Assembly: GCA_035285025.1 (NCBI GenBank)
Contig: JAYKHY010000064.1
Location: 5,895 to 69,894, forward strand
Reading direction: 5' to 3'
DNA from: Vampirovibrionales bacterium
GTDB lineage: Bacteria; Cyanobacteriota; Vampirovibrionia; Vampirovibrionales; JAJTHC01
DNA length: 64,000 bases
Of the stretch, positions 5,363 through 59,033 are shown in pieces; position 1 is the first letter of the stretch; each line of letters starts with the position of its first letter. Both the position numbers and the translations under genes were made by a program. The notes below the pieces were generated by a model. It worked only from the letters and a program-made list of their open reading frames with translations. It ran no database searches and was not told where the DNA came from.

Positions 5363-5680
5363 AAGCTGTAGGTCTTTGCGATAGCGCGCTGCTTTCGCTA
5401 GAAATCTTCCTCAAAAAATTTTCTTTGAGCGCAAAGACCTGCTGATTTTGATGACAACAAGAAAACCTGCGTGTTATGTCTAGAAATCTTCTTCTAAAGA
5501 AAACACTTGTTAGGAAACGTTTTGGAGCGACAAGCTGTAGGTCTTTGCGGTTGCGCGCTGCTCTCGCTAAAAATCTTCCTCAAAAAAATTTTCTTTGAGC
5601 GCAAAGACCTGCTGATTTTGATGCCAACAAGAAAACCTGCGTGTTTTCTCTAGAAATCCTCTTCTAAAGAAAACACTTGT
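5363..5680. repeat. two tandem copies (period 169 bp, 149 bp homologous, about 94% identical) that duplicate the nrdB 3' end and its 3' flank
   Basis: Unit 5363-5511 aligns with unit 5532-5680. Each unit ends with ctagaaatcYtcttctaaagaaaacacttgt, which is the reverse complement of QVFSLEEDF-stop. Each unit also has an internal inverted repeat AGGTCTTTGCG/CGCAAAGACCT. Confidence 0.9.
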
Positions 5681-6936
5681 TTTTCTTTACCCGTCATTAC
5701 GCCGGCTTTTTGGTAGGCACCCACGCGGCACTCGAAAAAATTGGATTTGTTTTGCAGCGAAATGTGTTCCATGAACGGGAACGGATTTTGCGCAAAGTAA
5801 ATCTTCGGGTAGCCCAATTCTGCCACCAGGCGGTCGGCGACAAATTCGACGTATTGGCACATTAGTTTTGCGTTCATGCCAATTAATTCCACCGGAATCG
5901 CCTCGGTAACAAAATGTTTTTCGATATCGACCGCGCTGGTCACAATCTCGCGGATGCGGGCTTCATCGAGCTTTTTAGTGAGCATGCTGTAAAGCAGGCA
6001 GGCAAAATCGCAGTGCAGGCCTTCGTCTCGGCTAATCAGTTCGTTGGAGAAGGTTAAGCCGGGCATTTTGCCGCGTTTTTTAAGCCAGAAAATAGAACAG
6101 AAGCTGCTCGAGAAAAATACGCCCTCTACCAGTGCAAACGCCACCAGGCGCTCGGCGAACGAGTCCGTATCGTTAATCCAGCGCATCGCCCATTCCGCTT
6201 TTTGTTGCACGCAAGGCATGGTGTCTATGGCGTGGAACAGGCGGTGCTTTTCGTACGGGTCCTGAATGTAGGTATCAATCAAGAGGCTGTACATTTCGGA
6301 GTGAATGTTTTCAATCGCAATCTGGAAGCCGTAAAAACAACGTGCCTCGGGGATTTGCACCTCGGTGCTGAATCGGCTGGCCAGGTTCTCGTTTACAATG
6401 CCATCGCTGGCCGCAAAAAACGCCAGAATGTGCGAGATAAAATAACGCTCGTTATCGTTAAGCCCGCGCCAATGCTCTAAATCACTGCTCAGGTCAACTT
6501 CTTCGGCCGTCCAGAAGGAGGCGACGGCTTTTTTGTACATTTCCCAGATGGCGTTGTGCTTAATCGGGAACAGTACAAAGCGTTCCTGAGACGGGGCCAG
6601 CAGGGGCTCGTTCAAAATGCGCGATTTTTGCAGGGCAGCTTCAGCCGTTTCCGATACAAGCGACAATCCTGGTGCGGTTAAAGCACCTGGCGTCAAACTG
6701 GTAAGCGCATCGGCTGCGTGCATGGGCTCGGCATCCTTTCTGGACAACGTATCGAATGATTTTAAAAGCGAGGCGTTTAACTGAGGCAGATCTTCGAGCT
6801 GAAACGGCGGCAGTTCATCAACATCTGCGGCGCTGGCTGTCAGTCCCTCTCGAGTTACAATTGCACTAGGATCCGTCATGGTCAAATTATAGTCCTTAAA
6901 CTGTTCAACGTTTGCGTTATTTGCGTTAAACAACAC
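5650..6936 (-). CDS. nrdB: ribonucleotide reductase class Ia small subunit (R2, eukaryote/chlamydia-like), with an N-terminal extension of about 110 aa
   Basis: [97 protein letters not shown] and a C-terminal FSLEEDF tail. The true start may be an internal Met. Confidence 0.9.
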
Positions 6937-9267: not shown

Positions 9268-11130
9268 ATGACCTCGATTTCTTCAGACGCTTCTTTGACC
9301 TCGATTTCACCAGAGTCGCTCATCCAGCCCCGGCAGGCCGTGCTAGCCCTAAGCGCCTACAAACCTCCGCTAGAAGGGCGTACGGGTAAAATTCGGCTGG
9401 ATTTTAACGAAAACACGGCGGGCCTGGCCGAGCTGATGCCTGAGGCGCTACGCCCCCTGGGCGAAGCGTTTGGGATTTACCCCGAGTACGAGGCGCTTAC
9501 GCAGCAAATGGCTGCGCAGTACGCCCTGCCTGGCGCCGAATGGTTACTGCTGACGAACGGCAGCGATGAGGGCCTGAGCGTACTGGCCAGCACGTTTATT
9601 GAACCTAAACAGGACGTGGCGCTAATTTGCCAACCGACGTTTCCGATGATTCCGCACAGTTTAAAACTGGCCGAAGCCAAATTGCTCGAGATTCCCCTGA
9701 CGCCTGAGTTTCAGTTTGATTTGTCAGCCATAGAGCAGGCGCTTAGCTCGCAGCCCGTTAAGCTGGTGATGCTCGCCTCGCCCGACAACCCCACGGGTGC
9801 TGAACTTGCGCCTGAGACGCTCGTGCGCTGGTTAAAACAATTCCCGCAAACGCTATTTATTATGGACGAAGCTTATGCGGGATTTAGCAGGGAGAAAGAT
9901 TCTTACAGGGAGGGAGCCCGAGGGAGGGAACGGCCCACGGCAAACGAGCAAACACTGAGCCTACTAACACAGAGCCAAAACCTCATCATCTCCCGCTCAT
10001 TCTCCAAAGTCTGGGCGCTGGCTGGCCTCCGGCTGGGGATTTTAATGGGCCAACCCTACCTGATGAACTACCTGAGCCGCGTACGATCGCCGTATAGCGT
10101 GAACGTAGCGGCCGTGGCCGTGGCGCAAACCATGCTGACGCACACAAACGCGGTGTCGCAGTCTGCGCGGGGCATTATGGCCCGCAAACCCGCGTTTATC
10201 CAAGCAATTCAGGCCCGGGGCTGGCGCACAAGCAGCGGCGGCGGAAACTTTTTTTTACTGGCGGCCGGGCGGCAGTTGCCCCAACTTTTAGCCGCTTGCA
10301 AACAGGCGGGCGTGTTGATTCGAAGCCAGGATGAAAAGCCGATGCTCAAAGGTTGGGCGCGCGTGACCGTGGGTACGGATGCCGAGAATCAGGCGTTTTT
10401 GGCTGTACTGGATTCGCTCCGGCAACAGCAGGCCTTGATTTTGGACTTGGACGATACGCTGGTTGATTGCAGCGAAAGCTTTACGGCGGTTGTCCACGCG
10501 CTTTACGCGCATTACAGCGGCCAGCCGCTCGCGCTGGATACACTCCAAACATTACGCGCCGAAGGCGGGTATAACGATGACTGGGTGACGACTTTAGAGC
10601 TTTTAAAGCGGGCTGGCTTAAAAACGCCCACGCTGGGTGGCTCTTCGACGCTTGGCGCAGCCGAAAAACCTTTACCCTCTTTGACTGAAATTGCAAAAGA
10701 AGGCGTGCGTCGGTATCTGGACGTTGCACCCAAAACCGAGTGCTTGCTGGTGGCTGATGCGACTTTAAAAGCGCTCGCAAAACGCTTCAGGTTGATGATT
10801 TACACCGGACGGCACCGGCCTGAATATGACCCGGTTTGGCGCGAACGATTGCAAGCGCTAATAGAAGACGTGCTATGCGTGGACGAGTTACCCTCGGGCA
10901 TGCAGCCCAAGCCCGCGCCGGATGGCTTAAACGTGCTGATGCAGCGCCATGGCTTAACAGGCGGCTATTATGCAGGCAACAATATCGATGATATGCAGGC
11001 AGCCACAGGCGCTGCGCTGATTGCCATTGGCGTCACGACCACCCAGCCAGAAGCTGTGCTTGTGGGCGCCGGGGCGGCCTGGTGCGTGAGCACCCTTGAG
11101 CAGTTAAGGGATGACTTTTTGCTACCGTAA
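9268..11130 (+). CDS. hisC: histidinol-phosphate aminotransferase fused to a C-terminal HAD-superfamily phosphatase domain
   Basis: The aminotransferase part has LDFNENT, DEAY and SRSFSKVWALAGLRLG (PLP lysine). The C-terminal 230 aa have HAD motif I DLDDTLVD, motif II IYTGR, motif III KPAPDGL and motif IV GNNIDD. Confidence 0.85.
   Translation: MTSISSDASLTSISPESLIQPRQAVLALSAYKPPLEGRTGKIRLDFNENTAGLAELMPEALRPLGEAFGIYPEYEALTQQMAAQYALPGAEWLLLTNGSDEGLSVLASTFIEPKQDVALICQPTFPMIPHSLKLAEAKLLEIPLTPEFQFDLSAIEQALSSQPVKLVMLASPDNPTGAELAPETLVRWLKQFPQTLFIMDEAYAGFSREKDSYREGARGRERPTANEQTLSLLTQSQNLIISRSFSKVWALAGLRLGILMGQPYLMNYLSRVRSPYSVNVAAVAVAQTMLTHTNAVSQSARGIMARKPAFIQAIQARGWRTSSGGGNFFLLAAGRQLPQLLAACKQAGVLIRSQDEKPMLKGWARVTVGTDAENQAFLAVLDSLRQQQALILDLDDTLVDCSESFTAVVHALYAHYSGQPLALDTLQTLRAEGGYNDDWVTTLELLKRAGLKTPTLGGSSTLGAAEKPLPSLTEIAKEGVRRYLDVAPKTECLLVADATLKALAKRFRLMIYTGRHRPEYDPVWRERLQALIEDVLCVDELPSGMQPKPAPDGLNVLMQRHGLTGGYYAGNNIDDMQAATGAALIAIGVTTTQPEAVLVGAGAAWCVSTLEQLRDDFLLP
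9904..9940 (-). repeat. copy of the 37-38 nt GC-rich palindromic repeat, inside hisC and in frame
   Basis: tacagggagggagcccgagggagggaacggcccacgg is the reverse complement of the family consensus. It is translated as YREGARGRERPT. Confidence 0.75.
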
Positions 11131-13694: not shown

Positions 13695-13808
13695 AACGAT
13701 GTTTATTTTACCCGAGGTTCCTACTTAAAGTTCAAGCTTAATGCCCTCAAAACGATAGTCAATTCATGCGTTTTCCTGGGTATAGGCAATTTTGCGCAGA
13801 GAGGCAGT

Positions 13809-13846
13809 GCGAGGGCCGTTCCCTCCCTCGCGCTTCCTTCCCGGGT
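13809..13846 (+). repeat. copy of the 37-38 nt GC-rich palindromic repeat (intergenic)
   Basis: The sequence is gcgagggccgttccctccctcgcgcttccttcccggg. Confidence 0.8.
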
Positions 13847-14226: not shown

Positions 14227-15141
14227 ATGAGTACGCCAAGTCCGACTGCTACGAGATATTTCGCGCCGGGTGTTTTACCTGCTGGACTTTCGCAAGCGCC
14301 GCCCGTGTTGCCGCCGCATTTGATGGCACCGCACTTTTACGCGCAATACGGTGCTTTAAAACAGCCCGCAACGCCTGTAATCGCCAATGCGCTGCCGGTG
14401 CCGGGTTTGGGGCCTGTGGCTGGGCCCTCGCCTGCGGCTGCGGCGATGCCGATGGAAGCCCTGGTGCGCGATTCGGTTGAGTTGGCGGGTAAAAAACTGG
14501 TTCAGCAAGCCGAACATCTGAACCCTACACAGATGCAATCTGCTATTAATAAGGCTGTAATGAGCACGGGTAAGGTTGCGGCGGGCCTAACTAAAGTGGG
14601 GATTCAGGCGATTCCTGAGTTTCATAATCCGCTCGAAAAAGGCTGGCTGCGCCTGGTGGGGTTTTTTAATGAATTTGCAGAATCCGCCAAGGGCGTGATT
14701 CCACCGCAGTTGTATCGTCTGTTTTATGGCGTCGAGATGGCGTATACCGCGCTGGATTGCCTGAATACGCGTAAGCACGCCCTGACGCATCAGGATAATT
14801 TGTTGGAGGCGCAGCAAAAGCGCAAAGTTGCCGTGGGCGAAATGCTTAACACGCTGGGCAAGCAAGGCCTGGCTACGTTTTTGATTCCTTATGTTGTGAT
14901 TGAGAACTTTAAAAAAGTCGTTGAGCACGCCCTGGAAAATCCAAAACTGATGCAAAAGTTACCGGCAAAACTTGCTCAAGCTGTTACCAGTAAGGCGGGT
15001 AAAAAATTCATTCCGGTGCTGGCGGGCTTGTCCACGATTCCGTTGTTAACCCGCTACGTCGATCCGTTGGTGTTTGGCGGCTGCGATAAATTCTTGCGGC
15101 CGCTCGTCGGTGCCGCGCCTTTAGAGCAAGAGCCTCGCTAA
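14227..15141 (+). CDS. hypothetical protein with a proline-rich N-terminus
   Basis: 304-aa ORF. I recognise no motif. Its 3' end is part of the tandem repeat at 15109-15303. Confidence 0.55.
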   Translation: MSTPSPTATRYFAPGVLPAGLSQAPPVLPPHLMAPHFYAQYGALKQPATPVIANALPVPGLGPVAGPSPAAAAMPMEALVRDSVELAGKKLVQQAEHLNPTQMQSAINKAVMSTGKVAAGLTKVGIQAIPEFHNPLEKGWLRLVGFFNEFAESAKGVIPPQLYRLFYGVEMAYTALDCLNTRKHALTHQDNLLEAQQKRKVAVGEMLNTLGKQGLATFLIPYVVIENFKKVVEHALENPKLMQKLPAKLAQAVTSKAGKKFIPVLAGLSTIPLLTRYVDPLVFGGCDKFLRPLVGAAPLEQEPR

Positions 15142-15303
15142 GCCAGATTTGACATCGCAAGGGTTAATGCGCGGGTTCACCGACGCGTGTTACAACGCCG
15201 GGTGCCGCGCCTTTAGAGCAAGACCCTAGTTAAGCCAGATTTGACATCGCAAGGGTTAATGCGCGGGTTCACCGACGCGTGTTACAACGCCGGGTGCCGC
15301 GCC
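15109..15303. repeat. 92-bp tandem repeat (2 full units plus an 11-bp third start) covering the stop region of ORF 14227..15141
   Basis: Units start at 15109, 15201 and 15293, each with GGTGCCGCGCC. Units 1 and 2 differ at 3 of 92 positions, all within the last three sense codons. Confidence 0.9.
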
Positions 15304-15442
15304 GCTGGAAGCACAACGCTAATAGGTGTTTACTGGCTTTTTAAAAGTAGTGTTTATAATTAGCGGCGTTTTAATTTTTATTAGGGGTTGTATGAGAGAC
15401 GCCTCAGGTTTCTGCAGCAAGCAGCGCTGAGTATTCCACAGG

Positions 15443-18400
15443 CTAAACCTCGAGCCAGCTGGGGCCCACGCTGACATCTACAATCAGCGGCACGCGCAGC
15501 GGCTTCTGAGCATCGTCGAGCTTCATCGCCCAAAGCACCTGCTTGGTTACGTCGTCAAGGGCGGCTTGCGGGGCCTCTAGCACCAATTCATCGTGTACCT
15601 GTAGCAGCAGTCGGGCCGGACTTTGCGTCTCGTGTAATTTTTCGTGCAGGCGGTTCATGGCCAGCTTGATTAAATCGGCCGCAGAACCTTGCAGGGGCGT
15701 GTTAAACGCGGCGCGCTCGGCAAACTCCCGAATGTGCCGCACGGGGCTCTCTAGCGCCTCTTTAAGCCAGCGACGGCGGCCATATAGCGTTTCAACGTAG
15801 CCCTGGCCGTGCGCCAGTGCCTTGGTTTCTTCAATAAAATCGCGCACGCGCGGGTAACGTTCAAAATATTTATCAATAAACGCCTGCGCCTCGAATCTTG
15901 GCACGCCCAGTTGCTGCGATAATCCGTGCGCGGTTTGACCGTAAATCACGCCAAAGTTTACGGTTTTAGCCTGGTAGCGCATGGTTTTGGTCACGTCTGC
16001 CAGCGGTACATCAAACACCAGGCTGGCGGTGCTGACGTGTACATCCTGCCCGTTTTGGAACGCCTCAATCAGGTGCGGATCTTCCGAAAAATGCGCCAGC
16101 AGGCGCAGCTCGATTTGGGAGTAATCGGCCGAGATTAAAAAATAGGGCTGATTAGCGTCTAAAAGTCCATCCTGATGTGGGGTGCGTTCCCTCCCTCGCA
16201 CTCCCTTTCCGGAGGGAATAAACGCGTGCCGGATTTTTTGCCCCACCTCGGTTTTAACCGGAATATTCTGCAGGTTGGGCTCGCTGCTAGAGAGCCTGCC
16301 CGTGGCGGCAATCGTCTGGTTCAAGCTGGTATGCACCCGGCCCGATTTGGGATGCACCAGCTGCGGCAACGCATCAATGTACGTGCTTTTAAGCTTGAAT
16401 AGCTGCCGGTATTCCAGCAGTTTACCTACCATCGGGTATTCTGGGGCCAGTTGCTCTAGTACTTGGGCGTCGGTGCTAAAGCCGGTTTTGCCCGCGGTTT
16501 TTTTGGTGGGTTTAATGCCCATGCGCTCAAATAAAATCTCGCCCACTTGTTTGGGCGAATTTAAATTAAACGGCAGGCCGGCCAGCGCGTGGACTTCGGC
16601 TTCTAGCTGGGTGAGCTGCTCGCCCAGTTGCTGCGAGAGTTCGGCCAGATAGCTCGTGTCAATCGTGATGCCAAGGCGTTCAATGGCCGATAACACCTCG
16701 ACCAAAGGCAATTCAAGCTCGTAGAGCAAAGCATTCAGGCCCGCGTTGGCTTGCTGGGCAAGCTCTGTTGCAAAACTTTCGGCCAGCGCAAGCGTCACGT
16801 AAACATCGCTTGCGGCATACGGAGCGCCTTGCGCAATAGGCACTTGGCTAAACAGAATCTGTTTTTTCCCGCTGCCAATCAGCGTGGTAATATCCTGCAG
16901 AATCAGTCCCAGCAGGTCGCTGCCCAGGGCTTTAAGGCCGTGGCGGCGCTCGGGATTCAGCACGTAACTGGCTAGCATGGTATCGAACCACAGGCCCTGG
17001 CATAGGTCTGGATTGATATTTTTTGGGCTTGGATTTTCTGGATTTATCGCTTCGGCCTGTTGCAGTCCCCATTCGTTGAGTACGCTGCGCTCGTATTTGG
17101 CGTTGTGCGCTATTTTAATAATGTACGGGTCTGCCAGCAGCGGTGCCAGTTTCTGGAGTACGGTTTTCGGCGTGAGTTGCGGCGTTTTTCCTGATGTTTC
17201 GTCATTGGTTTCGTCTGCCACATGCCCGACCGGCACATAAACGATTTCGAGGCGATCAGTCTCAGGTGTTGGGCTATCAGGTGTTGCGCTAAGCTCGGTT
17301 GCCTGTGGGTTTACATGCAGGGCAACGGGCTGGCAAGGCAAACACGCTAGCTGCAACGGATTTTTAGGCGTGTAGCCTGTTTTAGATAACGCCTTGCTCC
17401 AGCCAAGCGCGTAGCCCACGGGCTGAATCGTAAGCGGGTCCAGGCCGGTGGTTTCCAAGTCTATTGCCAGCACGCCTTGCGCTTTGGCGCGGGCTAAAAA
17501 CGCGTCAAGGTCGGGCTCGGTTGTAACAAGTTTAAACGGCGGGCTAAAGGGCGCTGTAGGCGCAGATGAAAAAGCCAAAAGCTGGTGCTGAAGCGTTGCC
17601 TCTGCACTGGCACTATTCTGTGCTTGTGTGCCGCTTGCAAGTAGCTCGGGCGAATTCGGGTTTGATGCGCTTTGCGCCGGCGCGTCTGCCGCCGTTGCAT
17701 TGGCGGCGTTCGGCGTCTGGGGCGAAATAGATTCTTGCGTAAACGGTTTAAGTAACTGCGGCGATTGCTGTAAAAACGTTCTGAACTCGCATTTCTTCAG
17801 AAAATCCACCCAGTGCTGCCACACCGGAATATGCAATTCAAGGGCCTCTAGCGTCGTGGTTGCCTCGGGTACATCGCACTTAATTTGCGCAAGCGTTTGG
17901 CTCAGGTAAGCTTGCGCTTTGTGGGTGATTAATTTTTCGCGCAGTTTGTCGGGTTTAATCTGGTCGATGGCGTTGTAAATGGCATCGAGCGTGGGGTACT
18001 CGGTGAGTAATTTGCACGCGGTTTTTTCGCCAATGCCTGGTACGCCCGGAATATTATCAGAGGTATCGCCGCGTAAGGCCTTGTAATCTACGACCTGCTC
18101 GGGTTTAACGCCCAGTTTCTCGAACACGGCAGCTTCGCCGTAGCGCTTGAGGCCTTCTCGCGGCGTGCGCGAGGGAATCAATACCTGAATCTGCCCGGCG
18201 TGAGTTGTGTTGTCGACATCGTGCACCAACTGGAAGGCGTCTTGATCGCCGGTAAGAATTAGTACTTCGGCCTGGTGCTGTTGCGCAAGCTGTTTGGCCA
18301 GCGTGCCGATGACATCGTCAGCCTCGACGCCGGACACCTGAAACAGCGGCATGCCCAAGGCGTTTACGCCCTCCAGAATCATGGCCATTTGCACTTTCAT

Positions 18401-18736
18401 GGCGTCTGGCATGGCTTCGCGGTGCGCTTTATACGCCTCGTAGAGATCGGTTCGAAACGATTCCCGCGAGACGTCAAACGCGACCGCAACGCCCGTAGGG
18501 GCAACCTCTTTGAGCATGGCAAACAGGGCGTTAAAAAAGCCGTACACTGCCCAGGTTGGTTCTTGCCGGCTGGTTTTCATGCCGGTGCGCTCGAGCGCAA
18601 AGTACATTCTGTAGGCCAACGCGTGGCCATCAATTAATACGATTTTAGGCGTACCCGTTTTGCTCGATTCAAGTATTTGCGATTGAGGTAATTGCGCCGG
18701 CGGGGTCAATAACTCGCGCTGCGTTTCGGTGTTCAT
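15443..18736 (-). CDS. polA: DNA polymerase I (1097 aa, with low-complexity linkers)
   Basis: 5'-nuclease motif GDTSDNIPGVPGIGEKTA, motif A ADYSQIELR, motif B RYQAKTVNFGVIYG and motif C LQVHDELV. Confidence 0.97.
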   Translation of the reverse strand: MNTETQRELLTPPAQLPQSQILESSKTGTPKIVLIDGHALAYRMYFALERTGMKTSRQEPTWAVYGFFNALFAMLKEVAPTGVAVAFDVSRESFRTDLYEAYKAHREAMPDAMKVQMAMILEGVNALGMPLFQVSGVEADDVIGTLAKQLAQQHQAEVLILTGDQDAFQLVHDVDNTTHAGQIQVLIPSRTPREGLKRYGEAAVFEKLGVKPEQVVDYKALRGDTSDNIPGVPGIGEKTACKLLTEYPTLDAIYNAIDQIKPDKLREKLITHKAQAYLSQTLAQIKCDVPEATTTLEALELHIPVWQHWVDFLKKCEFRTFLQQSPQLLKPFTQESISPQTPNAANATAADAPAQSASNPNSPELLASGTQAQNSASAEATLQHQLLAFSSAPTAPFSPPFKLVTTEPDLDAFLARAKAQGVLAIDLETTGLDPLTIQPVGYALGWSKALSKTGYTPKNPLQLACLPCQPVALHVNPQATELSATPDSPTPETDRLEIVYVPVGHVADETNDETSGKTPQLTPKTVLQKLAPLLADPYIIKIAHNAKYERSVLNEWGLQQAEAINPENPSPKNINPDLCQGLWFDTMLASYVLNPERRHGLKALGSDLLGLILQDITTLIGSGKKQILFSQVPIAQGAPYAASDVYVTLALAESFATELAQQANAGLNALLYELELPLVEVLSAIERLGITIDTSYLAELSQQLGEQLTQLEAEVHALAGLPFNLNSPKQVGEILFERMGIKPTKKTAGKTGFSTDAQVLEQLAPEYPMVGKLLEYRQLFKLKSTYIDALPQLVHPKSGRVHTSLNQTIAATGRLSSSEPNLQNIPVKTEVGQKIRHAFIPSGKGVRGRERTPHQDGLLDANQPYFLISADYSQIELRLLAHFSEDPHLIEAFQNGQDVHVSTASLVFDVPLADVTKTMRYQAKTVNFGVIYGQTAHGLSQQLGVPRFEAQAFIDKYFERYPRVRDFIEETKALAHGQGYVETLYGRRRWLKEALESPVRHIREFAERAAFNTPLQGSAADLIKLAMNRLHEKLHETQSPARLLLQVHDELVLEAPQAALDDVTKQVLWAMKLDDAQKPLRVPLIVDVSVGPSWLEV
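16177..16214 (+). repeat. copy of the 37-38 nt GC-rich palindromic repeat, inside polA and in frame
   Basis: gtggggtgcgttccctccctcgcactccctttccggag. It is read on the polA strand as SGKGVRGRERTPH. Confidence 0.7.
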
Positions 18737-18769
18737 GGGTGTTCCTGAGGGGGCTCTTTCAAAAAACTA

Positions 18770-18860
18770 GGCGATTATCCCGTAACGAGTAGTATGGCAA
18801 ATTTTCGTTAGGCAGCGCAAACCTTTTAGCGTCCATACTGTTCGTCGTGGCATAATCGCT
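18770..18860 (+). mobile_element. 91-bp hairpin element (MITE-like), copy 1, flanked by a perfect 8-bp direct repeat
   Basis: GGCGATTATCC...GGCATAATCGCT with long internal stem pairing. AAAAACTA occurs at 18762-18769 and again at 18861-18868. The element lies 34 nt upstream of the polA start codon. Confidence 0.75.
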
Positions 18861-19116
18861 AAAAACTATTAGGCGCACCAACATGCTTTAAATGTGCTTG
18901 AAACGCGTTTAAATCTGTTTGAATGTGGCGATTAACGTGCGCCAGTTGATGATGCTGCCTGCTTTATAAAATAGCACGTTTTTTGCCACCACTAGGCTGC
19001 TGCCTAACTGGCACTGTTAAACTCTTGCGCTATTTGTCGCATGATTAACAGGGCATTACGCACAGGCGCATAATTTATGCGAGCCAGACATAACATAAAT
19101 CCGATTAACCCTGACT

Positions 19117-19626
19117 TTAGGCAGGCCAAATGAGCATCGCAAGGGCCATCAGGCCCATGGTCAGGTTTTCTGAAAGTGTAACGCTTGAAAGCGGCACGTT
19201 GAGCACGGTGCCCATGCAGGCACAACTTACCGATAGCCCAGCTTTAAGCGCTCGCATCACCCCAATCACGCCCAGCAACATTAACAGCACGGTCAGCCAC
19301 AAAACGCCTTGCGGCGCAACGCCGCTTAAGTAAGCTAAGCCAAGTGCCAGCTCGATAAATGGGTAGGCCAACGCATAAACTGTGCTGCGCTGGGCCAGTA
19401 AATCGTAGCGGGCAAAGCCTTCGGCAAATTGCGCAGGATTAAATAGTTTTAACATGGCAAAGCTGCAAAAGGTTAAACCCATCCAAAGCCGCATTGCTGT
19501 ATGCGCCGAAGCCCCGGTGCCCCAGACAAGCGACAGGGTCATTGCGATTGTGATAAGTACAAGCGCAATTAATGGCCAGTACTTTCGCCATGTATTTTCA
19601 GAGGCTTTTACGGGGTGCTGTATCAC
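19117..19626 (-). CDS. MauE/DoxX-family integral membrane protein
   Basis: Four predicted TM segments. FAMLKLFNPAQFAEGFARYDLL resembles the MauE domain. Confidence 0.65.
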   Translation of the reverse strand: MIQHPVKASENTWRKYWPLIALVLITIAMTLSLVWGTGASAHTAMRLWMGLTFCSFAMLKLFNPAQFAEGFARYDLLAQRSTVYALAYPFIELALGLAYLSGVAPQGVLWLTVLLMLLGVIGVMRALKAGLSVSCACMGTVLNVPLSSVTLSENLTMGLMALAMLIWPA

Positions 19627-19678
19627 GAATCAAGACTCCTGTCGTGTTTGCTGATGACGTTTTTAGCCCATAACCCTA

Positions 19679-19769
19679 AGCGATTATGCAACGACAGCAA
19701 GCATGGACGCTGAACTGTTCACGCTGCATGACAAAACGATGTCATACAGTCAATAACGAGATAATCGAC
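19679..19769 (-). mobile_element. 91-bp hairpin element, copy 2 (inverted relative to copy 1)
   Basis: agcgattatgcaacgacagcaagcatggacgctg...cgagataatcgac aligns along its whole length with the reverse complement of copy 1. Confidence 0.75.
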
Positions 19770-19988
19770 GGACTGTATTGATGCAGCAAACTTATGAGCC
19801 TAAGAATACCGTACGCTGAATTTGGCTAAAGTGTCTGGCTCATAATTAAAAGTTAACCCCTCGGACAGGGTTAGCCGCAATTCTGAGCGCGTGAATTTAA
19901 ACCGGGCAAACCGGGTTAACCGGGTTAACTGGGCTGCTTGAAAAACAAGGCAGCGTTTGCACGGTAACATAGCACTAGACTGACTAAA

Positions 19989-20066
19989 TTGGGGCGAGTG
20001 ATGGGAATCGAACCCACGTATACCGGTACCACAAACCGGGGCCTTGACCTCTTGGCGACACTCGCC
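19989..20066 (-). tRNA. tRNA-His (anticodon GTG) with encoded G-1 and encoded CCA
   Basis: Hand-folded from the reverse complement:
- G-1 plus acceptor stem GCGAGTG, pairing with CACTCGC, then discriminator C and CCA.
- D-arm GCCAAGAGGTCAAGGC, which is plastid/cyanobacterial-like.
- Anticodon stem CCGGT/ACCGG with loop TTGTGGT.
- T-arm GTGGG TTCGATT CCCAT.
There is one extra C at the junction between the D-arm and the anticodon stem, so this needs tRNAscan-SE confirmation. Confidence 0.85.
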
Positions 20067-20093
20067 ACCGTGCTTAGCAGTTGTATGAACTTA

Positions 20094-20123
20094 ATTATAA
20101 ATAAGAAAACGCTGCGGCTGCAA
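20094..20123 (-). promoter_or_regulatory. putative sigma70-type promoter for tRNA-His
   Basis: On the minus strand: TTGCAG (20123-20118), an 18-nt spacer, then a perfect TATAAT (20099-20094). This lies about 30 nt upstream of the tRNA 5' end. Confidence 0.45.
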
Positions 20124-20151
20124 TCACCAGATTTATATAATGCAGACCCGG

Positions 20152-20177
20152 CCAGATTTAATGCCCAGATTTAATGC
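20152..20177. repeat. perfect 2 x 13-bp tandem repeat CCAGATTTAATGC
   Basis: Copies at 20152-20164 and 20165-20177. A variant, ccagatttatataatgc, lies at 20127-20143. The repeats sit between the M55 peptidase stop and the tRNA-His promoter. Confidence 0.7.
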
Positions 20178-20226
20178 GTTGTTAAATGGCAACTAATCGC
20201 AAATTTTTCTGATTAAACCACTTACG

Positions 20227-21201
20227 TTAAAACACCTGCGCAATGTTTTGCGTGGCACCCAGGCAGGCATAAGCGCCCTGTAATGCCTGATACGTGGTTA
20301 AATAACTGCCCTGGCGCGTCTCAACCGTCAGGCCATTCACGCGTTGCCAGTGGGGTTGCTGGCAAATCAAATCGGCTGCTACGGGGTGGCTTAGGCTCAG
20401 GCGCAGAATATAAGGCGCCTCGGGGAGCCAGCTTGGCGGCGCCTGCGGCACGCCGGAGTGTAATTCGTCGAGTGCCATGGCGGCCTGCGCGGCAAGCTCC
20501 TGCTGCACATCGGCGGGGTTCTGATGTATTGCTGCGGCCCAGCCTTGACCGGTTTTGGTTGAGACGGTTAAAACTTCAGGCAGTAATTCGCGCAATTCAT
20601 CGCAAAAAGCCTGATCGCCGCTGCCCAGTAATACCGGCACGCCCAATGCGTGCGCGTACAGCGCGTTAAGCCAGGCTTCGCCCACAGAGCGCCCGTTGAG
20701 CGTAATATCGGTTAACCAATCCACAAAACTGTGGGCCAGCACGCCGCACTGTGTACCGGCTTTGCTGTGGTAGCCCACAAACATGGCGGCGCTATAGTCT
20801 TCGTTCAGGCCCGCCATCATGGCGCACAGTTTAGGCTTGCCGCTCAGGAGCTGCACGCTGGGCCAGTGAGCCTCAAAGGCGTCATCGCCTTCTGGGGCAC
20901 TGGGCAGCAGTTGCTGCGGATGCAAATTGACCATCGGGCCGTGCGCGTCATTAATCAACACGTCTAGCGGTTCGGCGTGGGGGGTGTGCTGTGTTGCTTC
21001 CAGAGTTGCCTCCAGGTTGGCCTCTGGGCTACCGCCCGAGGCTAAGCCGCGAAGCACGGCCCGTAATTCTGCCGCAAGCGCCTGGGTGGCCAGTGTATAT
21101 GCGGGCAGAATGTTGCCCGCGCCCGCCAGTTGCGGGTAGCATTGCGCTTTGCTGCTGACGCCACAGACGCCTTCGAGATCGGCCGAGATGTAAAGTTTCA
21201 T
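20227..21201 (-). CDS. M55-family D-aminopeptidase (DppA-like)
   Basis: MKLYISADLEGVCGV at the N-terminus, plus INDAHG, VGYHSKAG, GEAWLNA and VPVLLGSGD, which align with B. subtilis DppA. I chose the start at the MKLY Met; the upstream part of the ORF is probably not translated. Confidence 0.8.
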   Translation of the reverse strand: MKLYISADLEGVCGVSSKAQCYPQLAGAGNILPAYTLATQALAAELRAVLRGLASGGSPEANLEATLEATQHTPHAEPLDVLINDAHGPMVNLHPQQLLPSAPEGDDAFEAHWPSVQLLSGKPKLCAMMAGLNEDYSAAMFVGYHSKAGTQCGVLAHSFVDWLTDITLNGRSVGEAWLNALYAHALGVPVLLGSGDQAFCDELRELLPEVLTVSTKTGQGWAAAIHQNPADVQQELAAQAAMALDELHSGVPQAPPSWLPEAPYILRLSLSHPVAADLICQQPHWQRVNGLTVETRQGSYLTTYQALQGAYACLGATQNIAQVF

Positions 21202-21416
21202 ACTGTTTGCAAATCCTGTGCCACGCGTAAGAAGACTGTAGGTTTTATATTTGGATAACTTCGTGTATTGTATGCGCATTAGTATCTTAATTTAAAAACA
21301 GGTTACTCCAGATTTTTTAAAGCCTGATTTCGTCTGGGTCCTTGTTTAAAGGCGGACTCGCCGCAAGCAAGGGCATCTGTTTTAAAGGGCTCAACTTTAT
21401 AGAGGCAGTAAGATAT

Positions 21417-22640
21417 ATGGCATCCAATGGCGCAATGAATGGTGCTAAAAAGCGCGTAATGGTAATGACGGGCGGCGGTGACTGCCCCGGGCTCAATGCG
21501 GTGATTCGGGCTATTGTGCGCAAGGCCAGAACGCTGGGCGACTGGGAGGTGCTCGGTAGCATTGAGGCGTTTAACGGCATTTTGCGCGACCCGATGGAAA
21601 TCGTGATGCTGGATACGCATAGCGTGGCCGGGATTCATATTCGGGGTGGCACCATTTTAAAAACCACCAACAAGGGTGGCCCGTTTGAATGGCCAGTGCG
21701 GCAGGCCGATGGCTCCTGGACCACCGAAGACCGTTCGGATGAGCTGATTGCCCGACTGGATAAACTGGGCGTCGAAGCGATTATCAGCATCGGCGGCGAT
21801 GGCTCGATGCGCATTGCGCAAGACCTGATGGATAAAGGTCTGAACGTGGTGGGCGTGCCAAAAACGATTGATAACGATTTGAGTTCGACCGATGTCACGT
21901 TTGGCTTCCAGACGGCGGTTGAGATTGCGACCGATGCCGTGGATAAACTGGTGACGACGGCGGCCAGCCATAACCGCCTGATGATTCTGGAAGTGATGGG
22001 GCGCGACGCAGGCTGGATTGGCTTGAGTGCTGCCATTGCAGGGGGCGCGGATGTCGCGTTGATTCCGGAAATCCCGTACGATCTCGATGTCGTCTCGGAT
22101 AAAATTATGCACCGCATGGAAAACAACCGGGGCTTTGCGATTGTGGTGATTTGCGAGGGGGCCAAGCCGGTGGGCGGCGAGGTTACGGCCTCTAAGAGCG
22201 ATCAAGTGGGTTACGCCAATAAATTGCTGGGCGGCGTGGGCCACCGGTTGTTGGCCGAATTAAAAGCCCGCCCCGGTTTTAGCGAAATCGATGCGCGCGT
22301 TATGATTCTGGGGCATTTACAACGCGGCGGCACGCCTTGCGCTTACGACCGGATTCTGGCGACGCAATTTGGCGTTAAAGCCATGGAGCTGGTGAACGAA
22401 GGCCGCTACGGCGAGATGGTTGCGTACCGCAAACCCAAAATCACCTCGGTGACGATTAAAGAGGCGATTGCCGAATATAATTATGTCTCGCTGGATAGCG
22501 ACCTGGTCAAAACGGCGCGCGGCGCTGCGATTTGCCTGGGCGATGCCATTTCGGGCGAGCAGCAAATGTTCTTCAGGCAGCATCCTGCCGCGATGCCGCT
22601 CACGCTGGGCGGCGGTTTGCCTGAACTTCAAATTAGCTAG
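21417..22640 (+). CDS. pfkA: 6-phosphofructokinase
   Basis: Motifs GGGDCPGLNAVIRAIV, IGGDGS, VGVPKTIDNDL and MGRDAGWI. I placed the start at the ATG at 21417. Confidence 0.9.
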   Translation: MASNGAMNGAKKRVMVMTGGGDCPGLNAVIRAIVRKARTLGDWEVLGSIEAFNGILRDPMEIVMLDTHSVAGIHIRGGTILKTTNKGGPFEWPVRQADGSWTTEDRSDELIARLDKLGVEAIISIGGDGSMRIAQDLMDKGLNVVGVPKTIDNDLSSTDVTFGFQTAVEIATDAVDKLVTTAASHNRLMILEVMGRDAGWIGLSAAIAGGADVALIPEIPYDLDVVSDKIMHRMENNRGFAIVVICEGAKPVGGEVTASKSDQVGYANKLLGGVGHRLLAELKARPGFSEIDARVMILGHLQRGGTPCAYDRILATQFGVKAMELVNEGRYGEMVAYRKPKITSVTIKEAIAEYNYVSLDSDLVKTARGAAICLGDAISGEQQMFFRQHPAAMPLTLGGGLPELQIS

Positions 22641-23102
22641 CCAGGGCCCTTACGGCTAAAGCACGCGAAAGGGTTATGCTGCAGCGGGCGCTTTTCAGGG
22701 CTCGTTTCAGCCCTGCAAGTTTAAACTTGGAATCGCCTGCTGTGATTATTGTGACCTGTCGCGCCCGCTATAATAGCGTTAGAGTAACCCCATTCCCTTG
22801 CCTGACGCCTTCGCGCTAAAGACAGGCGTTGCCCCGTCAATCAAGGCATCATTGCGTCATAAGCTTTATTTTGCTCGTGGGTGGCCTAATCGCTATTATG
22901 GGGGCTCGCTAAAGCGCGCGATGGGCGTGGTTAAGTTTTTCGTTCAAAGTTGCCTTAGGGCTTGCTTTTGCGGTAGGGATTGCGTTTAATGCAGCTTGAG
23001 CCAGACTTAAGCTCGGGCTCAGAATGTTTGTGTTAGTTCTTGTATCCCTCAGTTGTTACTCATTTATGAGCGTCGAGCTCATTCAAGAAAGGTTCGAATA
23101 GG

Positions 23103-23702
23103 GTGAAGATGATGATGAAGCAAACCACACGTTTTGCCGCCTTGGCTGCCACTGCCGCTGTAATGCTCAGCAGCACCGCCGCGATGGCCGAAACCCTCCA
23201 AATTAACGTCAGCAAAGACATGCCGACCAACATCGTGATGCCGGTTGCAACGGCTGACCTGACGGGTTCGCTGGATATCCAGGTGATGAATCCCTCGTAT
23301 GAAACCGTTACGTTTTTAATCCCCGGCAAAGCCGAAGTCGTTGTGCCGTTTGGCGAAGATCGCACCGTTTCGCTGGCCGCCGATGAAATCGATGCCGCCA
23401 ACGGAATCAACTACGCGATTTTGGACAACCACCCCGAAGGCAACAACTATGTGCTGGTGATGGGCAAAATCACCGAGCCGATGATGCCGGATCCGGCCAT
23501 TGCCGAGCGCGATGCCCGTTTCGCCCAGTTCTCGTCCAATTCTCAGCAAAGCCTGGCCCAACTGATTGCGCGTAACAACTACGTTGCGCCGCCGGTGTAC
23601 AGCCAAGCCGAATCCGAAGCCGCCATGGCCGCCAAAAAACCCATGATGGCTCCCGCCTACCAACCTCGCACCGCCAGCAAAACGGTTCGTGGCTATTGGT
23701 AA
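23103..23702 (+). CDS. secreted hypothetical protein
   Basis: Clear signal peptide (KQTTRFAALAATAAVMLSSTAAMA-ETL). No motif recognised. Confidence 0.55.
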   Translation: MKMMMKQTTRFAALAATAAVMLSSTAAMAETLQINVSKDMPTNIVMPVATADLTGSLDIQVMNPSYETVTFLIPGKAEVVVPFGEDRTVSLAADEIDAANGINYAILDNHPEGNNYVLVMGKITEPMMPDPAIAERDARFAQFSSNSQQSLAQLIARNNYVAPPVYSQAESEAAMAAKKPMMAPAYQPRTASKTVRGYW

Positions 23703-25078: not shown

Positions 25079-25261
25079 GCAATTTAGCGTTTCAGTTAGG
25101 ATTAACGCCATCATTTATCCGGAATAAAACATCGGCTCTTGATGCCCTATGCCAAGAAATACCCTGATGCGTGGATGCGATTACGTTATCTTTAAGTGGC
25201 ATTTTTATGCAAAAGGTGGCGTTTTTTGCGAATAAAACGGGTATAGAATGATAACAATAAA

Positions 25262-25351
25262 GGCGATTATCCTGTATCTGACAGTAGGGTAAATTTTCGT
25301 CACGCAGCGTAAGCCTTTAAAGTCCATACCGTCAGTCGTGGCATAATCGCT
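25262..25351 (+). mobile_element. 91-bp hairpin element, copy 3
   Basis: ggcgattatcctgtatctgacagtagggtaaattttcgtcacgcagcgtaagcctttaaagtccataccgtcagtcgtggcataatcgct. It lies 53 nt upstream of yggS. Confidence 0.75.
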
Positions 25352-25403
25352 AAAATAGTCGCAATGCCTCTTTGATTTTTTTTGAGTCGAGTCTTAACGT
25401 GTA

Positions 25404-27604: not shown

Positions 27605-27743
27605 AATTCGGGCAAAGTCCTAAAAAATCAAAACAAAACAGAAAAAAGGTTTAAACTAGCCTTATCAAACCCAAAAGACGCCGCGGATGCAAGTCGAGCC
27701 ATTGGCGGGTCGTGGGTCAATTTGGTGGGTTCAATATCCTAAA

Positions 27744-27780
27744 GCGAGGGTCGTTCCCTCCCTCGCGCTCCCTCCCTGAG
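27744..27780 (+). repeat. copy of the 37-38 nt GC-rich palindromic repeat (intergenic)
   Basis: The sequence is gcgagggtcgttccctccctcgcgctccctccctgag. Confidence 0.8.
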
Positions 27781-33210: not shown

Positions 33211-34926
33211 TTAAGCTGGCTGCATCGCCAGATTTTCGGGCGACTCCGCCAGGGCCATGGCGATTTGAACCGCTGCCAACGTGCTTTTTGCCTTGTTGCG
33301 CGTTTCGAGATATTCCTGCTCGGCAATCGAATCAAACACAATGCCTGCGCCTGCGTGCACGTGCGCCCAACCCGGCTGGAGCAGCACGGAACGAATCGCA
33401 ATGGCGCCATCCATATTGCCATCGGCACCAAAGTAGCCTACTACGCCCGAGTAAAACCCGCGGCATTCGGGTTCAAGCTGGTTAATCAGTTGCATCGCCC
33501 TGATTTTGGGCGCGCCGCTAACGGTTCCGCGCGGCAGGCACGCGCTAAATAAATCCAGTGGCGTTTTGTCGTCAGCCAATTCGCCGCTAATGTCGGTGGT
33601 CAGGTGCATCACGTGGGTGTAACGCGTTAAGGCGGCGATTTGCCCCACCTGAATGCTGCCCGGCTTGCAGCAGCGGCCTAAATCGTTGCGATCCAAATCG
33701 ACCAGCATGCGATGCTCGGCAAGCTCTTTTACGTTTGCGCAAAGTTCGTAGGCCAGCCGCGCGTCATCGGCCTGCGTTTTGCCGCGATAGCGCGTGCCGG
33801 CCAGCGCGCGTAACTTGACTTGTTGCTGTTGGCAGCTCACAAAGGTTTCGGGCGAGGCCCCTATGTAATGGTAATGATTAAACTTGAGCCAGTAGCCGTA
33901 AGGCGTAGGGCTAATGGCTTGCAGCACGCGGTAGGTTTGCAACGCTTGCGCGTCTAGCAGGGTTATTTCTGCTTGAGAGGGTTGATGGGCGGGGCTGGTT
34001 TTTAGTTCGCATTCAGCACCAGCATTATCAGCATCGCTTAGCCTAAGGCTATAGCGCTGCGCCAGCGTTTTTTGATTATTTTCCGTACTGTCAGCATCGC
34101 TAAGCCTGAGGCTATAGCGCTGCGCCAGTACGAGTTGAAACACCTGCCCTTCGGTGATCCACTGGCGGGTCTGTTCAACGGCCTCGCAAAAGGCCGCTTT
34201 ATCCATCGAAGCCTCTACCCGGTTAAAAATCCAGTCAGCATCCGAGGTTTTTTCGGCAAAGGCATCCAGCGCCAGCACTGGCAGTTGTGCCGGTTGGGCC
34301 AACGCGGCCATTAAATCGCGCCAGCGCGTATCGGCTTCGGCGTCAGGCAAATCGCAGAGCCAAAACGTGCGCCTGAGCCGGTGGTCTACAATCAAAACCT
34401 CGTGGTACTCGCCGTAAATCAGGTCGGGCACTTGCAAGGGATCGCAGGGTTTCGGCGCAATCGCGTCGGTGTACTGCGTTGCGCCGAAACCTGTTATGCC
34501 CACCCAACCACCGGTAAAGGGCAGTGTGCCCTCCCAGGGCAACGGCATGCTTTGCGCCAATAAGGCTTGCCTTGCAGCAATTTCAGCGTCTGTGAGTTTT
34601 TGCTGCGCTGCCAGCCACGCAAACGGATCGTCGCAGTTAAAATACTGCTCGTTGCCGCTTGACGTTGTGATTAGCCGGGCTTTACCGTTTTTAACTTCAA
34701 AAATTCGGCTCGGGCGTATCCCGATAAACGAGAACCGGGCCAGTCGGCTGTCGCCCTCGTTGCTATCCAGTAAAAAGGCGTGCGATTCGTTCGCGCTGAG
34801 ACGCGCAAACAACGAAACCGGGGTTTCAACGTCCGATGTCCACGAACGAACCCTCAAATGCTTTTCAGCAGGAAGCTTTTCTGGCGATGGTGTTTGACCC
34901 TTATCCATTGCATAAGCATAAGGCAA
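33211..34926 (-). CDS. trpE: anthranilate synthase component I family enzyme (TrpE/PabB)
   Basis: FLLDSNEGDSRLARFSFIG, GQVFQLVLAQRY, AGTRYRG, GSIQVG, PRGTVSGAPKIRAMQLI and YSGVVGYF. It contains an internal duplication. Confidence 0.9.
   Translation of the reverse strand: MPYAYAMDKGQTPSPEKLPAEKHLRVRSWTSDVETPVSLFARLSANESHAFLLDSNEGDSRLARFSFIGIRPSRIFEVKNGKARLITTSSGNEQYFNCDDPFAWLAAQQKLTDAEIAARQALLAQSMPLPWEGTLPFTGGWVGITGFGATQYTDAIAPKPCDPLQVPDLIYGEYHEVLIVDHRLRRTFWLCDLPDAEADTRWRDLMAALAQPAQLPVLALDAFAEKTSDADWIFNRVEASMDKAAFCEAVEQTRQWITEGQVFQLVLAQRYSLRLSDADSTENNQKTLAQRYSLRLSDADNAGAECELKTSPAHQPSQAEITLLDAQALQTYRVLQAISPTPYGYWLKFNHYHYIGASPETFVSCQQQQVKLRALAGTRYRGKTQADDARLAYELCANVKELAEHRMLVDLDRNDLGRCCKPGSIQVGQIAALTRYTHVMHLTTDISGELADDKTPLDLFSACLPRGTVSGAPKIRAMQLINQLEPECRGFYSGVVGYFGADGNMDGAIAIRSVLLQPGWAHVHAGAGIVFDSIAEQEYLETRNKAKSTLAAVQIAMALAESPENLAMQPA
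34028..34128. repeat. in-frame 63-bp (21-codon) tandem duplication inside trpE
   Basis: tcagcatcgcttagcctaaggctatagcgctgcgccag (34028-34065) is repeated as tcagcatcgctaagcctgaggctatagcgctgcgccag (34091-34128). The protein reads LAQRYSLRLSDAD...LAQRYSLRLSDAD. Confidence 0.85.
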
Positions 34927-44086: not shown

Positions 44087-44154
44087 AGTGATTAGGACAT
44101 AACTGGCCGTTTGGACCTTGAAAGCTTGACACAGTTTGTTACGAGATAATCGCC
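44087..44154 (-). mobile_element. shorter (about 68 bp) relative of the 91-bp hairpin element, copy 4
   Basis: The reverse complement reads ggcgattatctcgtaacaaactg...gtcctaatcact. The first 17-18 nt and the terminal motif match copies 1 to 3. Confidence 0.5.
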
Positions 44155-44233
44155 AAAGCTTGTATTCTGCCACGTGCGCCAGGTACAGCACGCCCCAAGC
44201 CAAAAGGTTCTGTTTTAAGACCTTATTTTGGCG

Positions 44234-48243: not shown

Positions 48244-48373
48244 CGTTGCTATTTTGAGATGGGCGTTCTAATTACATAAGCTTTGCTATGCGAGGGCCGT
48301 TCCCTCCCTCGCGCTTCCTCCCTGAGCTTGGGCCGAGCAAAAGTAGCGTTGCTATTTTCAGATAGCGCGTTCT
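48229..48373. repeat. about 41-bp direct repeats duplicating the ABC-F stop region and flanking a palindromic-repeat copy
   Basis: gccaagcaaaagtagcgttgctattttgagatgggcgttct (48229-48269) is repeated as gccgagcaaaagtagcgttgctattttcagatagcgcgttct (48332-48373). Confidence 0.8.
48290..48326 (+). repeat. copy of the 37-38 nt GC-rich palindromic repeat (intergenic)
   Basis: The sequence is gcgagggccgttccctccctcgcgcttcctccctgag. Confidence 0.85.
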
Positions 48374-58865: not shown

Positions 58866-59003
58866 AGCGGGGGAGTGTCCTAACCTGATTGAGGGGCAAT
58901 TGATAAATGAAACGCGTTTTTAGGGCAAAAACGCCCTGACGTGTTTGAAATTTTATTAGTTTAAAGATGTTTCTGCTTGAAGATTTTTAGTTTTAAATTT
59001 TTT

Positions 59004-59033
59004 AATTTGAAGATTTTTAATTTGAAGATTTTT
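59004..59033. repeat. 2 x 15-bp tandem repeat AATTTGAAGATTTTT straddling the surE stop codon
   Basis: Units at 59004-59018 and 59019-59033. A degenerate third unit (cttgaagattttt) lies at 58976-58988. The reverse complement of one unit encodes KSSN-stop. Confidence 0.8.

Follow-up and report, generated by a model that had tools for sequence, protein, structure and literature searches.

Short palindromic repeats that lie in frame within protein-coding genes are known from Rickettsia, in which Rickettsia palindromic elements (RPEs) have been found inside many genes (PMC10969869). As far as they are described in two summaries (PMC10969869 and PMC3733652) of the work by Ogata et al. (2000), RPEs measure approximately 100-150 bp, encode approximately 30-50 amino acids (aa), and yield a conserved peptide. 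Repetitive extragenic palindromic sequences (REPs) have also been reported inside open reading frames (ORFs), those of replication and repair genes being preferred (Di Nocera et al., 2013; PMC3733652); the REP superfamilies of that study were defined by a GTAG or CGTC terminal tag, and its supplementary table lists a REP dimer in the DNA polymerase I of Rhodopseudomonas palustris (RPE_4821) at aa 338-367. In the present study, we describe a related case in polA, the gene for DNA polymerase I (Pol I), in a stretch of 64 kb (64,000 nucleotides [nt]; hereafter the window) from a Vampirovibrionales bacterium, in which a decayed copy of a dispersed G-rich hairpin repeat, referred to below as the element, is read in frame before catalytic motif A. 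The analysis followed up an earlier reading of this DNA, made from its letters and its ORFs (the original prediction), which had claimed that a palindromic repeat copy is translated inside Pol I at this point.

The likeness to RPEs is one of behavior only, and the element is not a member of the RPE family. To the extent that the two summaries describe RPEs, both are dispersed palindromic repeats with genic and intergenic copies, lying in frame in unrelated housekeeping genes, and in both the host ORF is open and the protein presumed to be functional, with the insert thought not to disturb the fold. The insertions found in polA and in a second gene, hisC, are in frame and absent from orthologues, as expected of an RPE. 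The element differs from RPEs in its unit of approximately 35-39 nt (up to approximately 50), corresponding to approximately 12-20 aa, which shows no sequence similarity to RPE-1 to RPE-10, in its two coding copies in 64 kb, and in its host, a free-living or predatory member of the Vampirovibrionales and not an obligate intracellular alphaproteobacterium.

With genic REPs, the element shares the form of a 20-40-bp stem-loop repeat, mostly extragenic as far as the 64 kb of the window show, with occasional copies translated within ORFs and DNA polymerase I among the hosts; it is itself a short imperfect palindrome of this size that forms a stem-loop, and the clustered, oppositely oriented copies on two metagenome contigs described below resemble REP dimers or REPINs. 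However, no conserved GTAG or CGTC was present beside the stem on either strand of the five aligned copies, and no REP-associated tyrosine transposase (RAYT) was found in the window. Whereas the insert of R. palustris, at positions 338-367 of a 1012-aa protein, probably lies in an inter-domain linker, that described herein occurs within the catalytic palm, the motif A aspartate following 10 residues later. Cyanobacteria also carry short mobile repeats that are sometimes found in coding sequences, including the small dispersed repeats (SDRs) of Nostoc and MITEs (transposable elements of the miniature inverted-repeat type) such as Nezha. Repeats of this kind are mentioned by Di Nocera et al. (PMC3733652), and the host in the present study belongs to the sister lineage of photosynthetic cyanobacteria; the likeness is by description, with no known sequence similarity, and MITEs have terminal inverted repeats and target-site duplications, neither of which was seen for the element.

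The element is best called an untagged REP-like repeat translated inside genes, and its membership in the RPEs or in the described REP superfamilies is unsupported. It introduces no new principle: in-frame palindromic insertions date back to the Rickettsia study of 2000, and a report of REPs in polA followed in 2013. The host lineage, the position in the palm and not in a linker or at a terminus, and the recurrence across distant bacteria with stem covariation are modestly new.

A repeat-derived insertion before motif A of DNA polymerase I

The window has a G+C content of 51.5% and was assigned to the Vampirovibrionales (Melainabacteria) on the basis of its closest database proteins, which bear that label. 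The polA product (Table 1) matches PF02739, PF01367, PF01612, and PF00476, which cover the 5'-3' exonuclease, 3'-5' exonuclease, and DNA_pol_A domains, and its top matches among solved structures were Taq, Klenow, and Bst Pol I (phmmer, E about 1e-118). In the alignment with Taq, motif A (DYSQIELR), motif B (RxxAKxxNFGxxYG, present as RYQAKTVNFGVIYG), motif C (QVHDE), and the exonuclease motifs were all intact, and the motif columns showed no variation across a 39-sequence alignment; the possession of motifs A, B, and C together with both exonuclease domains identifies the product as a family A polymerase. With all of its catalytic motifs retained, the enzyme is presumed to be active. The sequence near residue 836, RHAFIPSGKGVRGRERTPHQDGLLDANQPYFLISADYSQIELR, was found in ORF 15443..18736 exactly as it had been quoted in the original prediction.

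The insertion was delimited using Taq Pol I and a set of the 120 best database homologues, which included the window protein and 119 others. The comparison with Taq (phmmer) left a single 20-residue gap between AFI(A) and the strand preceding DYSQIELR. The distance from PNLQNIP to DYSQIELR was 24-26 residues in 101 proteins, 27-34 in 17, and 42 in one (P0032), while a distance of 44 was found only in the window protein; the insertion was missing from all 119 retrieved orthologues. The two closest, at 64% identity, read AFVPEKNWFL(L/I)SADY at this site, and in the DNA of the nearest (L002; GCA_035285385.1) GCATTTGTGCCC is directly followed by GAAAAAAACTGG, with both flanks aligning and zero bases between them. 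The site lies between the codons for Pro841 and Asn862, and the 60 nt inserted there are the sole length difference from relatives within the polymerase domain. The insertion had been predicted to be about 19 aa in size; its presence was borne out against Taq and every orthologue retrieved, and both the Taq gap and the orthologue distances set its size at 20 aa (60 nt). It was also placed too close to the active site, at a few residues from the motif A aspartate, since it actually ends 9-10 residues N-terminal to Asp871.

The extra residues did not prove to be a lineage-wide conserved loop lacking nucleotide similarity to intergenic sequences; part of them is encoded by a copy of the element. 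The 15-mer CGTTCCCTCCCTCGC occurs exactly at positions 13817, 16185, 27752, and 48298, and with one mismatch on the other strand at 9918, the expectation in 64 kb being 0.08 matches even with two mismatches permitted. nhmmer and a covariance model agreed on five copies, with E values of 2e-10 to 3e-8 and 1e-9 to 3e-6, respectively, and the window thus holds five firm copies and one weak copy, three or four of which are intergenic. The consensus on the G-rich strand is cAGGGAGGGAGC-GCGAGGG-AGGGAACGG-CCCTCGC, a unit of 35-39 nt that contains a 23-nt hairpin with a 7-bp GC-rich stem and a 9-nt loop. The polA copy corresponds to codons 842-854 (16175-16213), has an exact 15-mer in common with three intergenic copies, and matches the core consensus at 26 of 34 positions. 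It had been predicted as a palindromic repeat copy; a dispersed repeat is indeed read in frame here, but this copy is no longer a palindrome, with four of seven stem pairs left. In 31.7 kb of the nearest relative, there were zero copies of the element.

The predicted repeat origin of the insertion core was supported by nhmmer and the covariance model, although the repeat covers approximately 37-39 of the 60 inserted bases and not the whole. Approximately 12 more may stem from a 3' extension of the element: on the 3' side of the hairpin, the polA copy reads TCAGGATG..GAC, the same string is found at the same offset in the 38614 copy, and a variant is present in the 27743 copy. These similarities suggest a subfamily of the element with a 3' extension, in which case approximately 50 of the 60 inserted bases would be element-derived.

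An ordinary lineage-specific expansion of the loop, with a merely coincidental resemblance to the repeat, would agree with the variable length of this loop in other lineages, in which no known repeat is involved. However, the exact 15-mer, the 29 of 39 positions shared with the family, the covariance model E value of 2.7e-6, and the presence of the same element at the second lineage-specific insertion in hisC make coincidence exceedingly improbable, and the 15-mer count, nhmmer, and the covariance model have already effectively refuted it. A repeat copy misplaced into polA by a chimeric join was also considered as an assembly or sequencing artefact, as short repeats may mislead assemblers and the contig is metagenome-derived. 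Against this, a contig in the separate Logan assembly of run SRR13425446 was 100% identical to window positions 15274-23598 (8325 nt) with the insert included, and encodes the same 1097-aa protein. The polA copy has diverged from every other copy (29/39) and, because of this difference, cannot be a read recruited from another locus; moreover, the element (39 nt) is shorter than a read, and the length of the insertion is an exact multiple of three with an open frame. The insertion is not an assembly artefact, and the chance that an error of this kind has gone unnoticed is very slight.

Direct repeats of 38 nt (89% identical), with a terminator-like stem and a T-run, flank the copy at 48288-48326 (positions 48223-48260 and 48326-48363) and are confined to that locus.

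Table 1. Coordinates in the window of polA, hisC, the insertion, and the copies of the element
Feature	Position	Strand	Basis
polA, full-length DNA polymerase I of 1097 aa, three domains present	15443..18736	-	ORF list, Pfam, PDB matches
60-nt in-frame insertion in polA, aa 842-861, SGKGVRGRERTPHQDGLLDA; edges slide by one codon	16154..16213	-	Taq gap, 119 orthologues, L002 DNA alignment
Decayed element copy in polA; 29/39 consensus positions, 4/7 stem pairs left	16175..16213 (or from 16177)	-	nhmmer E 2.4e-8; covariance model 41.2 bits, E 2.7e-6
Motif A, DYSQIELR; catalytic Asp871 codon at 16124-16126	16103..16126	-	Codon table; columns invariant in 39-sequence alignment
hisC, histidinol-phosphate aminotransferase fused to HAD hydrolase domain, 620 aa	9268..11130	+	Pfam PF00155 and PF00702
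Element copy in hisC, read Y-REGARGRERP-T; 6/7 stem pairs left	9904..9942	+	nhmmer, covariance model, codon table
Intergenic element copy, perfect 7-bp stem, between divergent ORFs	13807..13845	-	15-mer, nhmmer, covariance model
Intergenic element copy, perfect 7-bp stem	27742..27780	-	15-mer, nhmmer, covariance model
Intergenic element copy, perfect 7-bp stem, between convergent ABC-ATPase genes	48288..48326	-	15-mer, nhmmer, covariance model
Possible sixth copy, decayed, intergenic, larger loop	38614..38660	+	Covariance model 15.3 bits, E 0.43; nhmmer E 0.022; 3' flank like 27743 and polA copies

The hairpin, the hisC copy, and recurrence in other bacteria

The copy in hisC lies within a 16-aa lineage-specific insertion (about 9889-9936) that is absent from the 29 closest aligned homologues and from the DNA of the nearest, L004. 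An exact search for the HisC protein gave no entry, and the independent assembly supports the polA copy. Conserved enzymes thus host two of the five copies, each as a lineage-specific insertion that keeps the frame. As predicted, they are read in identical orientation and frame relative to the gene, and a codon comparison gave the peptides G-A-RGRER-P in hisC and G-V-RGRER-T in polA, i.e., G-x-RGRER-(P/T). This shared frame weighs little because the core of the element has zero stop codons in all six frames, and agreement by chance has a probability of approximately 1 in 6; its use as evidence of selection was rejected for this reason. Regarding the hisC product itself, the C-terminal HAD domain may be a histidinol phosphatase, and the fusion is common to most of the retrieved homologues, which represent several phyla.

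A metagenome scan with the core palindrome yielded four contigs with G+C contents of 55-72%. On each of the JGI contigs L006 and L007 (67% G+C), a single intergenic region holds three copies within approximately 200 nt, with both orientations represented, and their stems differ yet are complementary (GCGAGGG/CCCTCGC, CCGAGGGG/CCCCTCGG, and GCAGGGG/CCCCTGC) around a constant loop. In a covariation test on 13 copies with 500 shuffles and slid controls, 95.6% of the stem cells were paired, as against 41-66% in the slid controls; four of the seven stem pairs vary on both sides, and the observed covariation score was reached by none of the 500 shuffles. The polA copy accounts for three of the four unpaired stem cells and the hisC copy for the fourth, so that all of them belong to coding copies; the hairpin has thus been preserved in intergenic copies and has decayed in genic ones. 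When folded as RNA, the polA insert did no better than shuffled sequence (z-score of -0.54). Since it recurs in distant bacteria with compensatory stem changes, the element is worth describing as a repeat family.

The copies on the two JGI contigs span L006:859-1046 and L007:1039-1249 and have the same order and orientation, one C-rich followed by two G-rich, with unrelated spacers. The first two copies on each contig form a long REPIN-like hairpin, over which Rfam gives weak microRNA-like matches; at lenient thresholds, these sub-threshold matches to microRNA precursors over the inverted copy pairs in L006 and L007 were the only ones obtained over copies of the element, and at gathering thresholds no Rfam family matched the element. 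A CRISPR array was considered for these clustered copies and rejected, as their sequence, orientation, and spacing all differ.

The core sequence of the element was found in no paper of the literature searched, and a scan of viral contigs found no element. With GGNNCGTTCCCTCCCTCGNNCTNCCT as the query, a metagenome scan gave no matches, and a scan of a genome collection that does not include the genome of the window gave a sole match in Streptomyces, which was a non-palindromic chance match.

The G-rich strand of some copies (window positions 9907-9927 and 27755-27775, L006, and L007) fits the G-quadruplex pattern G3-N1-G3-N7-G3-N1-G3 (GGGAGGGAGCGCGAGGGAGGG), and the downstream CCCTCGC arm is able to pair instead with part of this pattern. 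Three copies (13808, 48289, and polA) have a weakened G-tract, either the first or the second. A broader proposal, which we regard as doubtful, is that these sequences represent an undescribed cross-phylum class of G-rich hairpin repeats in which the loop (AGGGAACGR) is constant, the GC stem covaries, and the 5' arm (GGGAGGG) gives up to four G-tracts, possibly permitting a G-quadruplex/hairpin switch. Such a class would be spread by a non-RAYT/GTAG mechanism and be common to a 51% G+C Vampirovibrionales genome and unrelated 67% G+C bacteria, and its Arg-rich loop could alter DNA handling by Pol I.

Probable tolerance of the insert by the enzyme

A model of polA residues 690-1097 was obtained with AlphaFold2 from the 39-sequence alignment (mean pLDDT of 88, pTM of 0.83). 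The insert, which corresponds to model residues 153-172, is nearly all coil with one short helical turn, and its pLDDT of approximately 63 drops to 49. It is flanked by the short strand FI (model residues 150-151) and the strand YFLISADY (176-183), the penultimate residue of which is Asp871 of motif A. The secondary structure and pLDDT indicate that the insert is most likely a flexible, solvent-exposed loop; judging from ordinary beta-strand geometry, the loop would emerge where the motif A strand begins, at the far end from the catalytic Asp and at a distance from it of roughly 20-25 Å. A low-confidence coil between two palm strands is consistent with the tolerated surface loop that had been proposed in the original prediction.

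In other lineages of Melainabacteria, the same pre-motif-A loop is longer by +4 to +18 residues, and on the basis of these sequences the loop appears to be naturally tolerant of insertions in Pol I. A repeat origin has not been demonstrated for these expansions, whereas a donor is identifiable in the present case. The capacity of the loop for 20 extra residues may interest polymerase engineers.

The repeat-derived, in-frame insertion is confirmed, and the interpretation offered originally is supported: the insertion in polA is probably a tolerated passenger derived from a REP-like element. A short G-rich dispersed hairpin repeat, REP-like or mini-MITE-like, would have landed in the loop before motif A after the lineage split from its nearest sequenced relatives, its target being the turn between the AFIP strand and the YFLISADY strand, between the codons for Pro841 and Asn862. 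The frame stayed open because the core of the element is free of stop codons and the net 60 nt are a multiple of three, and the codon table contained no stop throughout the insert, as had been predicted. The ribosome would read the insert as a 20-residue Gly/Arg-rich segment, which most likely protrudes from the surface as a flexible loop and is tolerated by the enzyme. The polA copy would later have drifted, with the decay of its hairpin and changes in its peptide, as a passenger and not as an adaptation; of the six codons departing from the consensus, five specify another amino acid. The same process would have placed another copy in frame in hisC. The locus provides a traceable case of a repeat insertion that changes a protein, for which the donor sequence, the unoccupied site of relatives, and a further example (hisC) are all visible; it extends in-frame insertions of palindromic elements to the non-photosynthetic sister lineage of cyanobacteria and illustrates how selfish or structural repeats may create new surface loops in essential enzymes.

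Several points weigh against a passive insertion of a mobile repeat. The insertion site is within the catalytic palm, and directed-evolution work on Taq has reportedly located specificity-changing mutations in the neighboring 597-615 region; a functional effect of the insert is, therefore, possible. Approximately 11-23 of the 60 inserted bases have no confident match to other copies, and the nearest relatives are just 64% identical, which limits any judgement on the age of the insertion and its spread in the lineage. The alignments of the flanks of the copies revealed no target-site duplication and no terminal inverted repeats beyond the single hairpin, and Pfam identified no transposase or RAYT domain in the approximately 50 ORFs of the window; as a consequence, the mobility of the element is suggested solely by its dispersed copies. 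We infer translation of the insert from its open frame, and the activity of the enzyme is presumed from its sequence.

The main rival to a passenger insertion is exaptation, in which the Arg-rich RGRER loop has been recruited for contact with DNA or a partner or for a change in fidelity or processivity, in line with the 'mutator' idea for REP-tagged repair genes. The insert adjoins the motif A strand in the palm, it is basic, with four Arg/Lys within a nine-residue stretch, and its frame has persisted while 10 of 39 positions changed; furthermore, Di Nocera et al. (PMC3733652) argued that the occurrence of REPs in genes for replication and repair, among them that for DNA polymerase I, may be more than fortuitous. 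On the other hand, the same peptide is present in HisC, an aminotransferase without a nucleic-acid substrate, the drift of the peptide consists mostly of amino-acid-changing substitutions, and the model predicts a disordered coil. Nothing similar is conserved in other lineages, in which the length and sequence of the loop vary freely, and with two coding copies only, no enrichment in repair genes may be claimed. Exaptation is, therefore, considered to be unlikely, and a tolerated passenger is preferred.

A disabled or redundant polA, or an insert that is skipped by translational bypassing or removed at the RNA level, is highly improbable. In yeast mitochondria, ribosomes bypass GC-rich palindromic inserts within genes, as in the case of the 'byp' elements of Magnusiomyces, and the polA insert has GGA codons at positions 843, 845, and 857, both of which are compatible with bypassing. 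However, no bypass is needed in an open frame that has neither a stop nor a frameshift, and the RNA of the insert is without significant structure. The intact catalytic and exonuclease motifs over 1097 aa argue against a disabled gene, and no second polA is present in the window to make this one redundant. Translational bypassing, an intein, and a pseudogene were all rejected in view of the open frame and intact motifs.

Other segments of polA and other repeats in the window

Outside the polymerase domain, three parts of polA differ in length from its relatives: the N-terminus, the linker that follows the 5'-3' exonuclease domain, and the 3'-5' exonuclease domain or its vicinity. Extra lineage-specific segments, 5-24 aa long and with a high content of Pro, Ser, Thr, Asn, and Glu, are encoded at window positions 17021-17299, 17588-17653, and 18659-18730, and showed no likeness to the repeat. 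The ExoII motif reads NAKYE, with Glu at the position of the E. coli Asp, a feature shared with other Melainabacteria.

A second repeat family of approximately 95 nt (AGGCGATTATCC...GGCATAATCGCTAAAA) was present at 18769-18864, 19679-19767 (inverted), 25261-25355, and 44114-44158. One copy lies immediately 5' of the polA start codon, and an inverted pair flanks the MauE-like ORF 19117..19626. On the other side of polA, a 92-nt tandem duplication (97% identical) at 15109-15292 takes in the 3'-terminal part of ORF 14227..15141 as well as the spacer that lies downstream of polA; position 15274, at which the independent Logan contig stops, falls within it.

In the gene for anthranilate synthase component I (ORF 33211..34926, minus strand), a 63-nt in-frame tandem duplication at 34028-34128 repeats 21 aa (LAQRYSLRLSDAD...). 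It falls at the conserved QxVLxQR region of TrpE, and the duplicated DNA holds a small palindrome, AGCCT.AGGCT; the Pfam match is gapped between residues 187 and 325. An intergenic tandem duplication of approximately 170 nt, 92-96% identical, is located at 5363-5681, before the gene for the small subunit of ribonucleotide reductase, and an AT-rich 15-nt tandem repeat (TTGAAGATTTTTAAT; approximately 3.5 copies) occupies positions 58977-59033 in the spacer between the convergent M17 aminopeptidase and SurE genes.

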